Assembly: GCF_013167455.1 (NCBI RefSeq)
Contig: NZ_CP038328.1
DNA: 64,000 bases
Source: Escherichia coli O157:H7
GTDB taxonomy: Bacteria > Pseudomonadota > Gammaproteobacteria > Enterobacterales > Enterobacteriaceae
Direction: 5' to 3' (one strand)
Numbering within the stretch: the stretch's first letter is position 1; the number at the start of each line of letters is the position of its first letter. Position numbers and translations under genes: made by a program. Of this stretch, positions 24,648 through 30,634 are shown piece by piece. The notes under the pieces are model-generated. The model saw nothing but the letters and a program-made list of their open reading frames with translations. It was not told the DNA's origin and did not search any database.

Positions 24648-26744
24648 TTAGCGGAAATTGACGCTACGGTCGCTGGTCATGTCATACAACTGGAACTTAC
24701 GCCCAAGTTGCTGACCACCGTCACGCGTCAGCGGCGTCCAGCCAATCGCCGCACGGCTGCGTGTCGGGCCAGACGAGAAGAGATCCAACGGTACAGAGAC
24801 ATACACGCCTTTGGTGAAGTCCCCTTCGCCGTACTCCTCTTTCGAAACGTTGGTGATCGTGGCATAGCCGCCCACCACCACGCCGCTGTCAAAGCGTTTA
24901 GCGATCTCCAGCGTGCCGCCTTTATCCCCTGCCAGATACTGCCCGACGCTGGCTTTAACTAACACATCCTGAGCGAAAGATGGCGTCCAGTAGGCGGTCA
25001 GATGTCCGGTTTTCACGCTGTAGTCGGTGAATTTCATCATATCCTTTGCACTACGCCAGTCGCGCTGTTTAACGTAGTTGGCATCCAGACCAAACGCCCA
25101 GTTGCTGTCCAGCGGGCGATACAACACTTCTGCCCCCGCACCGCCAAACATGGTTTCGAGATAACCTCCGTAGACCTGACCGTAGAAGCCGTTGCCCAGA
25201 TGCTGGAAGTAGTTGGCTTGCAGGTTATTCACATAGACATCGTTCTGCACATACTCGCGCACATGGGTACGCACGCGCGGTAAGTGCGAGTCCTGCGGCG
25301 GATTGGTGTAGTTAAACTTGTCGTAGTTGTTGGCAAGATTTGCAAACAGGCTGCCGGTGGTCAGCAGATGGTCCGTCAGCCACAAATCTGCCGTTCCCAT
25401 CACGCCCAGCTGATACATGTAAAAGTTTTCCGGGCCACCGACCGACTGGTTCAGCACCGGATCGATATGGAAATCAAAGCGCGATTTGTCGATATACCAG
25501 CCCTGCTCGGTGGACTTCGGAACCACTGGCTCGACGCGTTTTTGCGCCAGCTTCGTTTCGTGGCCCAACGGCTCTCCGGCGAGATGATTTTTCAGGCTGG
25601 CGACATCCGTTTCCGTCGTCACCTGCGGCATGTTAAGGCGATTTTCCGTAACGCGGATCGTCTTGATCCCATCCGGCAGATCATTCATCACGATCCGATT
25701 AGCACGAACGATCCCTTCGCGCGAATCACGATATTTCACCTGCTCGCCGGTAACATACAGCGTATCGCCTTTCGCCTGGATCTGCGGATCGGCAAGTCCG
25801 GCATTGTATTTCAACAGCGTTAACTGATTCGCCACCACCGAATGCTGCAAAATGGCATCCTGCGGCTGCGGTTGATATTGCGGGCGGGCGTTATCGTTGT
25901 AAGACGGGCGCAGATCGTTAAAGTTGGTGCGCAGCGTGACGCCAAACATAAAGGTGTTGGCACGTTCATAGCTAAGGTTAACGTCGGCCCAATCGGTAAC
26001 GCGATAAATCGCCCCGACGTTAAACTTACTTTTTTGCTCCAGCTTACCGGCAAAATCCTGCTGATAATTATTGCCTTCATACTCCAGTTTCAGGCGCAGC
26101 GGTTGCCAGGGCGTCTGGTATTCCACGCCGCCAAACAGTGAGGCAGGACCGTGGAACATCTGGCTACCGTCGATAGATCCCGCCTGTTTGTAGCTGTTAT
26201 CGCGATAGCAATATTTATCACTGGCTGAACAGAGCGGATTTTTCACATTACCGCTTGTGCCCAAATATCCCCAGCCCAGGCCAAGCGTAAAATCGAACGG
26301 CCCCCAGGCTTTGCTGGCAACAAGATATTCCGCATCAAACAGCCCCGTACCGCCGATATCCCGCGCACCAACCGCCACTTGCGGCAGCCAGTAACTCTCT
26401 TCCCACAAACGCAGTTTGAGATCGAAGGCTTTATCTTTATACGTTTGATCGCCAGAGAACGCTTCGACGCTGCTGTACTGCCGGGTGCGCACGTCGGTGT
26501 AGCGCAGCGTTGTTTCCAGCCACGGGAAGAGTTGCACTGAAGCTGAGTAATAACGGTACTGATCGTTATCGCGATAGTTCAGACTCAACTCCCCTTCCCG
26601 CGCCATGCGAGCCGTGGGCGTTTGTAATAATCCTACGCCACCGAAATCCGACTGCGACGGACCAATGGGCGCAGGATATGTTTCGCCGTAGCAAGCTGTG
26701 CTAATGCCCAGCGCCAGTAAGCTAAGCAGATGTCTTTTTTTCAT
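24648..26744 (-). CDS. yjbH: outer-membrane beta-barrel protein YjbH (exopolysaccharide-associated yjbEFGH operon)
   Basis: 698-aa product with signal peptide [20 protein letters not shown] and C-terminal ...SVNFR. Confidence 0.85.
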
Positions 26745-27481
26745 TATTGAGGTATCCGCTGCGTCAGAGTCTGAAGAATGTCGGCGTTAAGGGCATCAGG
26801 CATCTCACTCCAGACGGAGTCCGCGAGGCCAACATAAATAATGCTGCCGGGCATCGGCTCTACGTGACGCTTGTTCCAGTAAGCCACCGGCGCTTTTTGT
26901 GTGCGTCCGTCCGGGTAAACCACCCACGCGTAGCTACGATCCGCACCGCCAAGCAGACTTTGCCCGGAGAGATAGCTCGCCACGTCGCGACCGGGAGTGA
27001 ATGGCTGATTGCCAGGACGGCTGATAAGCCCGAACAACGTGACCGTGGACGGTGGTGGTCCGACCCACAGCGTGTAGTTGCCCTGCAACGGCGGGTTAGC
27101 GCGTTCAGCAACGCGGACGATATCGGGATCAAGATTGATTTTTTGCCTGCCCGTCACCTTCAACGCCTGAATTTGCTGGCGTAAGGCGTTAATCGCAGCG
27201 GCATCGTCGGCGCTGGAATCTGCGCCCTGTTCTGCCAGCCGTGTCAGCAACGCCTGCTGCTGACGCAATGCTGCCGCCGTTGCCAGCTCTTCGCTAATCA
27301 CCGCACCAGGCCACCAGCTGTTTGCCAGCCGCGGTTGGCCTACCAGATCGATTAAATGCTCTGCGCCCGTTAGCGTTTTGGCCTCACTGCTGCCATTGCT
27401 GAACACCTTGACGGTTCCTGCCGCGAAGACCGATGACGCTCCCACACTCAAAAGCAACGCGACAATAGTTTGTTTAATCAT
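26744..27481 (-). CDS. yjbG: YjbG (yjbEFGH operon)
   Basis: 245-aa product from [20 protein letters not shown] (signal peptide); start overlaps the yjbF stop. Confidence 0.8.
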
Positions 27482-28146
27482 TGTTTTGCCGCCTTGATGA
27501 GAGTGGTTTTCACCGGGAAATAATCCGCGCCGAGATACTGTTCCGACTGGCGAATTTGCCCTCCGCTGTCGATCCAATAGCGGTTATGCCAGCGCGCCTG
27601 GTCGGTGGAGACTTCTTCGTCCAGCACGCGAACCGCGGTTTCATCGCTGCCGACCTTAACGGTACCGGTGCCATCCCATTTGAAGACTGAGCGTGCGGTG
27701 GCGTAGCGTACCTGCTGGTACTCGGTCCAGCCCATCGTGCGCATCCAGGTTGCGCCATCAATGATTTGTGCGGGTTTAATCAGCGGGTCGGCGGCAAGGT
27801 TATTCACTTCAATCAGGTTGTCGCCGCCAAGCAAAGTCTTCACCAGACGACCATGTTGTGTGACGAGAGTGGCCTGATCCTGAGTGACCCATTTTTGTTG
27901 TCCGTCTTCAGCGAAGGCCAGCACCACAAACAACTGCGGCCCACCATTAAGCTGCATGTACTGGCTGGCGTAGGGCATATTTTGAATATCATCGTCCGTC
28001 AGCTGTACGCCTGGCGTGCCGAACAGACTGTCCCACAGTGAATTGCCCAGCTCTTTAGTCGTGGCTGAACAGGCCTGTAATAGCAGGCAGATAAGAATGA
28101 ATGCAGGTCGCTTCACGACTCTTCTCCAGAGGGGCAGAATAACCAC
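27478..28146 (-). CDS. yjbF: lipoprotein YjbF (yjbEFGH operon); exact start uncertain
   Basis: Lipobox LLQAC near the N-terminus; position between yjbE and yjbG. Confidence 0.8.
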   Translation of the reverse strand: MVILPLWRRVVKRPAFILICLLLQACSATTKELGNSLWDSLFGTPGVQLTDDDIQNMPYASQYMQLNGGPQLFVVLAFAEDGQQKWVTQDQATLVTQHGRLVKTLLGGDNLIEVNNLAADPLIKPAQIIDGATWMRTMGWTEYQQVRYATARSVFKWDGTGTVKVGSDETAVRVLDEEVSTDQARWHNRYWIDSGGQIRQSEQYLGADYFPVKTTLIKAAKQ

Positions 28147-28229
28147 ACCGGAGTGTGGTTATGGTAAATCCCTTCATACTTCTAGCCACAGATGCAATGA
28201 CTCGAATTATTTTGGGGATACATACTTTA

Positions 28230-28472
28230 TTACTGGGTACTGGTGGTCGTGGTTGTGGTGGTCCCGGTATTAGAACCATCACCGCCACCGGTTGCCGCGA
28301 GCGCGACACCCACCGCCGAGCTTACGGTGCTGACGCTGGTCGCGGAGGAACTCCCCGCCGAAACCGACGTTGCTGCCGACCCTGCCGCTTCGCCCACCTG
28401 TACAGGTGCAGCCCACGCAGAAGTCGCCGCAAGCGCAGATATGGCAAAAATGCCATACAGAACTTTTTTCAT
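28230..28472 (-). CDS. yjbE: small secreted Ser/Thr/Gly-rich protein YjbE
   Basis: 80-aa product [23 protein letters not shown]... ending in a poly-Thr tract. Confidence 0.8.
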
Positions 28473-28869
28473 AACAATTTCCCTTCATTGAATGAATGGA
28501 GATTTACCCAAAAACATTTCGGGCGGGATCGAGTATACACAACTAAAGCATGCGAATTACGGCGCGGGGAATTAGAGATGGGGTTTTAGGATAATTGGAA
28601 TGAATATCAAATATAAGCTACAACCTATATATAAATAACATTAAAAATCATAGTGTTAAAATAAAAGTAAAAGTAATTAATCTGAGTATTTTCCGAAATC
28701 AATCACGATTAAAAATCTATTTTAGGATTAACCTCACGGTATGATTTCCGTTAAATCACAGACAAGGGGATTTATCTGATAAAACAATGCCGACTTATAG
28801 TCGGCATTGTTTTTAAGGTTATTTAATTAATCGTGCTATGCATTAATTGCCGAATACGATGTACATATC

Positions 28870-28978
<109 letters not shown>

Positions 28979-28984
28979 CGATGA

Positions 28985-30634
28985 TTAACCGCGCCACGCT
29001 TTATAGCGGTTAATCAGACCATTGGTCGAGCTATCGTGGCTGCTGATTTCTTTATCATCTTTCAGCTCTGGCAGAATACGGTTCGCCAGCTGTTTACCCA
29101 GTTCCACGCCCCACTGGTCGAAGGTGAAGATGTTCAGGATCACGCCCTGAGTAAAGATTTTGTGCTCATACAGCGCAATCAACGCACCCAGGCTGAACGG
29201 AGTGATTTCGCGCAACAGGATAGAGTTGGTCGGGCGGTTACCTTCGAACACTTTGAACGGCACCACGTAGTCAAGCGTTGCCGGATCTTTACCCTGATCG
29301 CGATATTCCTGCTCAACCACTTCGCGGGATTTACCAAACGCCAGCGCTTCGGTCTGGGCGAAGAAGTTAGACAGCAGTTTCTGGTGGTGATCAGAGAGCG
29401 GGTTATGGGTGATAGCCGGAGCGATGAAATCGCACGGTACCATTTTGGTTCCCTGGTGGATCAGCTGGTAGAACGCGTGCTGACCGTTAGTGCCTGGTTC
29501 ACCCCAGATAATCGGGCCAGTCTGGTAATCCACAACGTTACCGTTACGGTCAACATACTTACCGTTGGACTCCATATTGCCCTGCTGGAAGTACGCCGCG
29601 AAACGGTGCATATACTGGTCATACGGCAGAATCGCTTCAGTTTCCGCACCAAAGAAATTGTTGTACCAGATGCCAATCAGCGCCAACAGTACAGGCAGGT
29701 TTTTCTCGGCAGGCGTGGTGGAGAAATGCTTGTCCATCGCGTGTGCGCCAGAAAGCAGTTCAACGAAGTTATCAAAGCCGATGGAGAGAACAATCGACAG
29801 GCCAATCGCTGACCACAAAGAGTAACGACCGCCGACCCAGTCCCAGAACTCGAACATGTTGGCAGTATCAATACCAAACTCGCCAACGGCTTTGGCATTG
29901 GTTGAGAGCGCCGCAAAGTGTTTCGCAACGTGTTTTTCATCACCTGCCGCTTTCAGGAACCAGTCACGCGCGCTATGGGCGTTGGTCATGGTTTCCTGAG
30001 TGGTGAAGGTTTTAGATGCTACCAGGAACAGCGTGGTTTCCGGGTTTACTTTTTTCAGCACTTCAGCGATGTGAGTCCCATCGACGTTAGAAACAAAGTG
30101 CATGTTCAGGTGATTTTTGTACGGACGCAGTGCTTCGGTCACCATGTACGGGCCGAGGTCAGAACCGCCGATCCCGATGTTCACTACGTCAGTGATTGCT
30201 TTGCCGGTATAACCCTTCCACTCACCGGAGATAATCGCTTCCGAGAAGGTTTTCATCTTCTCCAGCACCGCGTTGACTTCTGGCATAACATCTTTGCCAT
30301 CAACCAGAATCGGGGTATTGCTACGATTACGCAGCGCTACGTGCAGCACGGCGCGGTTTTCAGTGCGGTTGATCTTCTCGCCAGAGAACATCGACTTAAT
30401 CGCGCCCGCCAGATCGCACTCTTTCGCCAGATCTTGTAATTTCGCCAGCGTCTCTTCAGTGATGCGGTTTTTGGAGTAATCCACCAGCATCTGATCGTCG
30501 AAGGTTGCGGAGAACTTAGAAAAACGATCGCCGTCTTTAGCAAAAAGATCGGCGATCGTAACGTCTTTCATTTCATCGAAGTGTTTCTGTAGTGCCTGCC
30601 AGGCAGCGGTCTGCGTTGGATTGATGTTTTTCAT
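28985..30634 (-). CDS. pgi: glucose-6-phosphate isomerase
   Basis: 549-aa product from [34 protein letters not shown]... Confidence 0.97.

Follow-up and report, generated by a model that had tools for sequence, protein, structure and literature searches.

The window analysed here, a 64,000-nt stretch of the Escherichia coli chromosome, contains the 5' end of the already known, Rcs-regulated exopolysaccharide operon yjbEFGH. Within it, the short exported protein YjbE ends in an evolutionarily constrained run of seven threonines, and the operon is preceded by a composite upstream region that includes a predicted RcsAB box. A probability of about 85% is assigned to this overall reading.

The identity of the locus is supported by protein family matches, gene order and annotation. 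The window lies in reverse orientation relative to the chromosome, with psiE, yjbH, yjbG, yjbF, yjbE and pgi encoded in that order on the minus strand and lysC following on the plus strand (Table 1). The YjbE product matches PF11106 over positions 1-79 of 79 with a score of 113.6 bits against a cut-off of 27.9, and all four yjb products far exceed their Pfam cut-offs. Downstream of yjbE, and in the same orientation, lie overlapping or abutting genes for YjbF, a GfcC-family protein and YjbH, the arrangement of a YjbE-family operon; this remainder of the operon spans 24648-28116 (minus strand). Genes identical to yjbE carry the RefSeq name 'exopolysaccharide production protein YjbE', and PMC5461412 and PMC8117528, both of which cite Ferrieres 2007, give the system a role in exopolysaccharide production. 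The name yjbEFGH, which an earlier note on this DNA had proposed from the letters and open reading frames alone, is therefore correct.

Table 1. Positions of the genes, protein motifs and upstream elements in the 64,000-nt window.
Feature	Position	Strand	Basis and remarks
yjbH	24648-26744	-	ORF; Pfam PF06082 YjbH; YjbH/GfcD outer-membrane protein
yjbG	26744-27481	-	ORF; GfcC family, N- and C-terminal domains (PF20616 and PF06251)
yjbF	27478-28116	-	ORF; Pfam PF11102 YjbF; lipoprotein
Hairpin in yjbE-yjbF spacer (AUAACCACAC-loop-GUGUGGUUAU)	28139-28162	-	Inverted repeat I7, perfect 10 bp, without U-run
yjbE	28230-28472	-	80 aa and stop; ORF list, Pfam PF11106, RefSeq annotation of identical genes
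Conserved C-terminal motif, GSNTG-T7-STQ region, aa 62-80	28233-28289	-	76 orthologues and 13 distant relatives aligned
Seven-Thr run, aa 71-77	28242-28262	-	ACC ACC ACA ACC ACG ACC ACC
Proximal leader	28473-28544	-	Near-invariant across genera (68-species conservation profile); Shine-Dalgarno AAGGGAAA
-10-like block GTTGTGTATACT	28532-28543	-	Start of leader; 68-species conservation profile
Box 3, conserved half-site ATCCTAAAA	28584-28592	-	About -120; conservation profile and alignment
AT-rich spacer	28603-28687	-	G+C about 19-26%; poorly conserved between species, hypervariable within E. coli
STnc430 match	28669-28818	+	Covariance model Rfam RF02053; predicted enterobacterial sRNA antisense to yjbE and pgi
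Box 2, weaker inverted RcsAB-like TGAGTATTTTCCGA	28683-28696	+	Centred 40 bp from box 1
Box 1 with AAA, TGAGGTTAATCCTAAAA	28720-28736	-	-264 to -248 from yjbE ATG
Box 1, RcsAB-box match TGAGGTTAATCCTA	28723-28736	-	14 bp, about 264 nt upstream of yjbE ATG
pgi intrinsic terminator	28781-28813		I2; perfect 15-bp inverted repeat, 3-nt loop, T/A runs on both sides
REP-containing segment	28827-28984		About 158 nt, directly after the pgi stop codon; variably present among E. coli strains
Inverted REP pair	28880-28959		Rfam naRNA4/REP match; inverted repeats I1, I5 and I6
pgi	28985-30634	-	ORF upstream of yjbE

YjbE is predicted to be a small protein, exported by Sec and disordered over most of its length, with an abundance of Ser, Thr, Ala and Gly. 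A Sec-type signal peptide (residues 1-21, ending ...SAWA/AP) precedes a mature part of 59 residues, composed of 22% T, 20% S, 19% A, 15% G and 12% V. AlphaFold, given 23 sequences, produced a low-confidence model (pLDDT 55.7) with helices only in the signal peptide and in a Gly/Ala/Val-rich segment at residues 44-61; the model was dropped as a query for structure searches because its confidence was too low. The poly-Thr end of the protein, which had been noticed in the initial reading, is real and consists of a run of seven Thr codons. In alignments of 76 orthologues and 13 distant relatives, the C-terminal motif containing this run is the best-conserved part of YjbE. Neither the signal peptide nor the central part of YjbE is as well conserved, even where overall identity is 45-60%, and the form GS(N/Q/S)TG-T7 is still present in library representatives at only that level of identity.

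The constraint on the tail becomes clearer when its residues are compared with its codons across species. A YjbF-based scan returned 80 loci, one per species, from many genera of the Enterobacteriaceae, and a YjbE gene was present in 76 of them. Exactly seven threonines in the same motif are encoded in 71 of these 76 species, at YjbF identities as low as 62%, and the Kluyvera group carries the tail variant TTTTTSTTT. As many as 46 different synonymous codon strings encode the seven-Thr run, which indicates saturation of synonymous sites against a constant residue and length. The order of the codons is not random either: the longest run of identical codons has a mean of 2.30, against 2.89 when codon order is permuted, and none of 2,000 permutations gave a value as low (scan loci L012-L091). 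Identical codons are thus adjacent less often than expected by chance, making the DNA a poor substrate for slippage. This interleaving, counted in related species that are not independent of one another, is consistent with selection against a slippery template.

Within E. coli, the tract was surveyed in 5,426 complete genomes using an 82-nt segment centred on the tract as the query, followed by versions with the +6 or the -6 allele; the three queries gave identity bands that agree with one another. The yjbE gene was matched in 5,420 genomes, with no match in the other six. The window's tract length is found in 5,317 of the 5,420 (at least 95% identity across the 82-nt segment), so that about 98% of genomes encode seven threonines. 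An allele longer by 6 nt (nine Thr) occurs in 85 genomes and one shorter by 6 nt (five Thr) in 18; the latter has three different DNA forms, implying at least three independent origins. One genome carries a 15-nt tandem duplication (twelve Thr), and strain FCI56 has a 2-nt deletion inside the tract (locus L008, 522-762) that is annotated as a frameshifted pseudogene. Tract-length variants therefore total 105 of 5,420 (85 + 18 + 1 + 1), a single one of which is out of frame. The slippage steps track the ACCACN hexamer pattern, being rare and nearly always in frame, and in the E. coli alleles read, every substitution within the tract is synonymous. Among the +6 carriers listed there are several sets of near-identical clinical isolates, which suggests that this allele is inherited within lineages rather than switched repeatedly.

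A separate lesion was seen in strain EC25, where an IS1A insertion splits yjbE (locus L002, 1665-2684); FCI56 and EC25 can both be regarded as natural yjbE knock-outs. An exact-sequence look-up of the YjbE proteins with 7, 9, 5 and 12 threonines gave no match in the protein collection, and a word-indexed protein search with YjbE was set aside as a source of tract lengths since it returned mostly frameshifted or truncated outlier clusters.

These data bear directly on the possibility that the tract is a slippage-prone simple repeat whose length changes diversify or switch the secreted product, in the manner of a contingency locus. Length variants of +6, -6 and +15 nt do exist, the -6 allele arose at least three times, and one 2-nt deletion has produced a pseudogene. 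Contingency loci, however, are marked by a long uninterrupted repeat and by frequent length polymorphism that includes frameshifts. The tract of yjbE is an interrupted repeat whose longest perfect run never exceeds two ACC units (Tandem Repeats Finder, minimum score 30, 78% matches), and its length differs in only the 105 genomes noted above. The near-identical isolates among the +6 carriers listed and the conservation of seven threonines across genera in 46 interleaved codon strings also argue against this view, and on/off switching is contradicted by the fact that all variants but one are in frame. The contingency interpretation is therefore highly improbable. The earlier note had described a slippage-prone ACC/ACG tract and proposed that variation in repeat length could alter the secreted product; neither suggestion is supported, given an interrupted repeat with codons interleaved more than by chance and seven threonines in about 98% of E. 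coli genomes and 71 of 76 species. That note had also named an invariant tract length across isolates as evidence against itself, and the length is indeed nearly invariant, although the rare in-frame alleles show that it is not entirely so.

It could alternatively be argued that the poly-Thr tail is a neutral, low-complexity appendix, kept only because it belongs to a short and slowly evolving gene. The predicted disorder of most of YjbE would fit this idea, as would the persistence in lineages of the rare 5-, 9- and 12-Thr alleles without obvious gene loss. Against it, the synonymous sites of the tract are saturated, yet neither substitution nor length change is tolerated in 71 of 76 species, and the tail outranks both the signal peptide and the central part of YjbE in conservation down to 45-60% identity. 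This explanation is accordingly given very little credence. On comparative sequence grounds, the tract is best described as a conserved functional peptide element, a constrained motif and not a contingency repeat. Purifying selection on residue identity and length holds the C-terminal T7-ST(Q/R) motif in place, and the underlying DNA is maintained as an interrupted mix of synonymous codons that slips rarely, in in-frame steps of 6 or 15 nt. A homopolymeric run of exactly seven threonines is conserved across a bacterial family, with a codon order that resists slippage.

The conserved tail is the best handle on what YjbE and its counterpart GfcA do. One speculative and rather unlikely proposal is that the GSNTG-T7-ST tail, together with the analogous tail of GfcA, is the working end of the system, acting as an O-glycosylation or polysaccharide-attachment site or as an export signal. 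If this were true, YjbE would be the cargo or primer moved by YjbF, YjbG and YjbH through the FapF-like N-terminal barrel of YjbH. It would then be no passive accessory, and exactly seven threonines would represent a length requirement of the machinery.

The upstream region was analysed in the same comparative way. The pgi-yjbE intergenic region comprises 512 nt (28473-28984), and G+C per 100-nt window ranges from 0.19 to 0.44 across 28450-28900, compared with about 0.5-0.6 in the flanking genes. The earlier note's description of AT-rich non-coding DNA at 28480-28860 is accurate as far as it goes, but the non-coding DNA reaches 28984 and includes a G+C-rich REP pair past 28860. Read from pgi to yjbE, the region is built from an optional REP pair, the pgi terminator, the RcsAB-box match, the AT-rich spacer and an invariant leader of about 70 nt. 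The REP pair consists of inverted imperfect palindromes after a stop codon, as is characteristic of REP/BIME elements, and the REP-derived naRNA4 model matches it with 81.3 bits versus 59.5. The pgi-yjbE spacer measures 512 or 498 nt in strains with the REP segment and 354 nt in E. coli strains without it. The stem of the pgi terminator is maintained by compensatory changes across species in the alignment, and the same hairpin could also terminate a plus-strand transcript.

The form of box 1 was found in 67 of 68 distinct species sequences, at -249 to -277 from the ATG; the species are phylogenetically related, so that neither this count nor those for the tract represent independent events. 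T1, A3, G4, T10, C11 and A14 are invariant in the 67, and these are precisely the capital letters of the RcsAB-box consensus TaAGaatatTCcta, as given in PMC4325325, which cites Wehland & Bernhard 2000. None of 18 sites at box 1 varies among 12 E. coli strains. A matrix derived from the box-1 set picks out the rcsA box TAAGGATTATCCGA, 264 nt before the K-12 rcsA ATG, with 14.0 bits and a next-best match of 7.2; the Salmonella rcsA box also lies at -264 (PMC7913699). Upstream of K-12 wza, the same matrix gave no strong match (best 3.9 bits), indicating that it is not general to every RcsAB target.

A match to the motif was not accepted as evidence by itself, and phylogenetic footprinting was used instead. 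The 64-kb window contains 22 copies of the degenerate core TNAGN5TCNNA, as many as shuffled sequence does, and the generic RcsAB consensus with three mismatches is no commoner in the window than in shuffles. The case for box 1 hence rests on its conservation and not on the match. Box 2 is the second-best match to the box-1 matrix in the 64-kb window (13.5 bits) and the best of those not used to build it, scoring above 8 bits in 37 of the 68 species. The half-site in box 3 has exactly the sequence of the right half of box 1, on the RcsB side. Box 1 is also flanked symmetrically by the arms of a 21-nt imperfect inverted repeat with 71% complementarity (28681-28701 and 28742-28762); these arms contain TGATTTC(C/G)G, and only the yjbE-proximal arm is conserved across species.

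Published work places yjbEFGH among the operons activated by RcsA-RcsB (PMC5651002, PMC5461412) and reports an induction of about 50-fold by envelope damage (PMC3599342). Induction by osmotic stress and a negative effect of RpoS are published as well, as cited in PMC3599342. Judged by its sequence and conservation, box 1 is the obvious candidate operator for RcsA-RcsB activation, and binding of an RcsA-RcsB~P heterodimer at this site would account for the published RcsA-dependent induction. The Rcs-type regulation that the earlier note had anticipated is thus supported by the box found at 67 of 68 species sequences and fits the published activation; a search for such sites upstream did recover one, so that a lack of any regulatory signal, which that note had set as evidence against its reading, does not apply.

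The position of the promoter is less easily placed. The only -10-like block with strong conservation is about 190 nt downstream of box 1, a long distance for direct activation unless the AT-rich spacer harbours a further promoter. No conserved -35 element was found ahead of GTTGTGTATACT in the 68-species profile, and no promoter on the strand of yjbE emerged from a simple sigma-70 scan. A distal candidate, TTAATC-16-AATACT, was discarded: in most E. coli strains the second hexamer reads AATACG, so that the final T is lost. The leader itself has zero to six variable sites within E. coli, and its predicted fold is no better than that of shuffled sequences (z = -1.16).

The AT-rich spacer evolves in a markedly different manner. 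Among 12 E. coli strains, 30.6% of its sites are variable, compared with 7.2% at third codon positions of yjbE. The 171 nt around it (28575-28745) are at least 99% identical to the window in only 331 of 5,414 genomes and 80-90% identical in 1,839, whereas for the yjbE gene itself 5,002 of 5,420 genomes reach at least 99% identity. The spacer alleles resemble discrete haplotypes, and candidate causes of the hypervariability include relaxed constraint, AT-biased mutation, recombination and selection on expression. Mechanistically, the spacer may act as a bendable, possibly H-NS-bound stretch between operator and core promoter. Its fast divergence within E. coli could underlie strain differences in the expression of the Yjb exopolysaccharide.

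A different interpretation of this region is offered by the Rfam match to STnc430, according to which 28669-28818 on the plus strand would be an sRNA gene, divergent from yjbE and ending at a bidirectional hairpin. The covariance score of 67.5 bits exceeds the gathering score of 47, a promoter-like ATAACA-16-TAAAAT, preceded by a TG, ends at 28662, immediately ahead of the start of the match, and T runs follow the 28781-28813 hairpin on the plus strand as well. One promoter-like match nevertheless falls within the shuffle expectation of 1.8, and the cmscan alignment contains many non-canonical pairs in the 5' helices. RNAalifold on 30 species returned 0 pairs and no consensus structure from an alignment that is ragged at its ends, and covariation was not found over the model, compensatory changes being visible, by eye, only in the terminator stem. 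The source study lists STnc430 (pgi/yjbE) among its class V bioinformatic predictions, with read counts of 0 for both the control and the Hfq co-IP libraries and a Northern entry of 'np' (Sittka 2008, Table S3). Where the model is conserved, its blocks overlie box 1, box 2 and the pgi terminator, and the RcsAB box and the terminator account for this conservation. An sRNA gene at this position is consequently quite improbable; what Rfam STnc430 models is probably a transcription-factor site and the adjoining terminator, not an RNA gene.

On the other side of yjbE, the yjbE-yjbF spacer (28117-28229) has a stable predicted fold (z = -2.78). Its length varies by strain (63, 113 or 186 nt), and an IS1 insertion in this spacer has been reported to activate colanic acid production (PMC8117528). 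One possible role of the hairpin in the spacer is to determine how strongly yjbE is expressed relative to yjbFGH.

The closest known system is the yjbEFGH operon of K-12 (Ferrieres et al. 2007; Ionescu & Belkin 2009), which lies immediately downstream of pgi and has the same genes and gene order. The K-12 yjbE gene (b4026) likewise measures 243 nt and is preceded by a 498-nt spacer. Differences are at the strain level only: the AT-rich spacer of the window is about 90% identical to the K-12-type allele, and its REP-containing segment is 14 nt longer. Regarding regulation, the RcsAB box (Wehland & Bernhard 2000), for example that of the rcsA promoter, is a 14-bp pseudo-palindrome, and box 1, as a predicted site, matches all of its conserved consensus positions. 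Box 1 is identical at 11 of 14 positions to the Salmonella rcsA box TAAGGTTTATCCGA and shares its -264 distance from the start codon (PMC7913699). It differs from the RcsB-homodimer box TN(G/A)GAN4TC(T/C)NA in having G and not A at position 5, and the rcsA box likewise differs.

GfcA (YmcD), encoded at the head of the group 4 capsule operon gfcABCDE-etp-etk, is the positional paralogue of YjbE. It has the same layout, with a signal peptide, a Thr/Gly/Ala-rich body, a hydrophobic Gly/Val/Ala segment and a tail, ...SGDGGSHNTSTTTSTTR, resembling that of YjbE, and its gene is followed by paralogues of YjbF, YjbG and YjbH. Published descriptions give GfcA a Thr content of 30%, a probable lack of structure and no known function (PMC8592465, PMC8346858). 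It has been speculated that this Ser/Thr-rich protein might be O-antigen-modified and passed to GfcD (PMC8592465), and GfcA is called natively unstructured in PMC8346858, which also assigns the YjbH/GfcD N-terminal barrel to the FapF family. In K-12, where gfcA lies at 2440-2745 of locus L096, an IS1 element was observed immediately upstream of the gene. The two proteins show no significant similarity to each other (BLASTP E = 65) and GfcA has no Pfam YjbE match; it contains several shorter Thr runs, unlike the single run of seven in YjbE, and the gfc operon, unlike yjbEFGH, continues into paralogues of wza/wzb/wzc. With contingency loci such as those of Neisseria and Haemophilus, yjbE has in common a short repeat in a gene for a surface-related product and some length polymorphism. 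It is unlike them in having an interrupted repeat, a length conserved across genera, and variation that is in frame and confined to about 2% of genomes.
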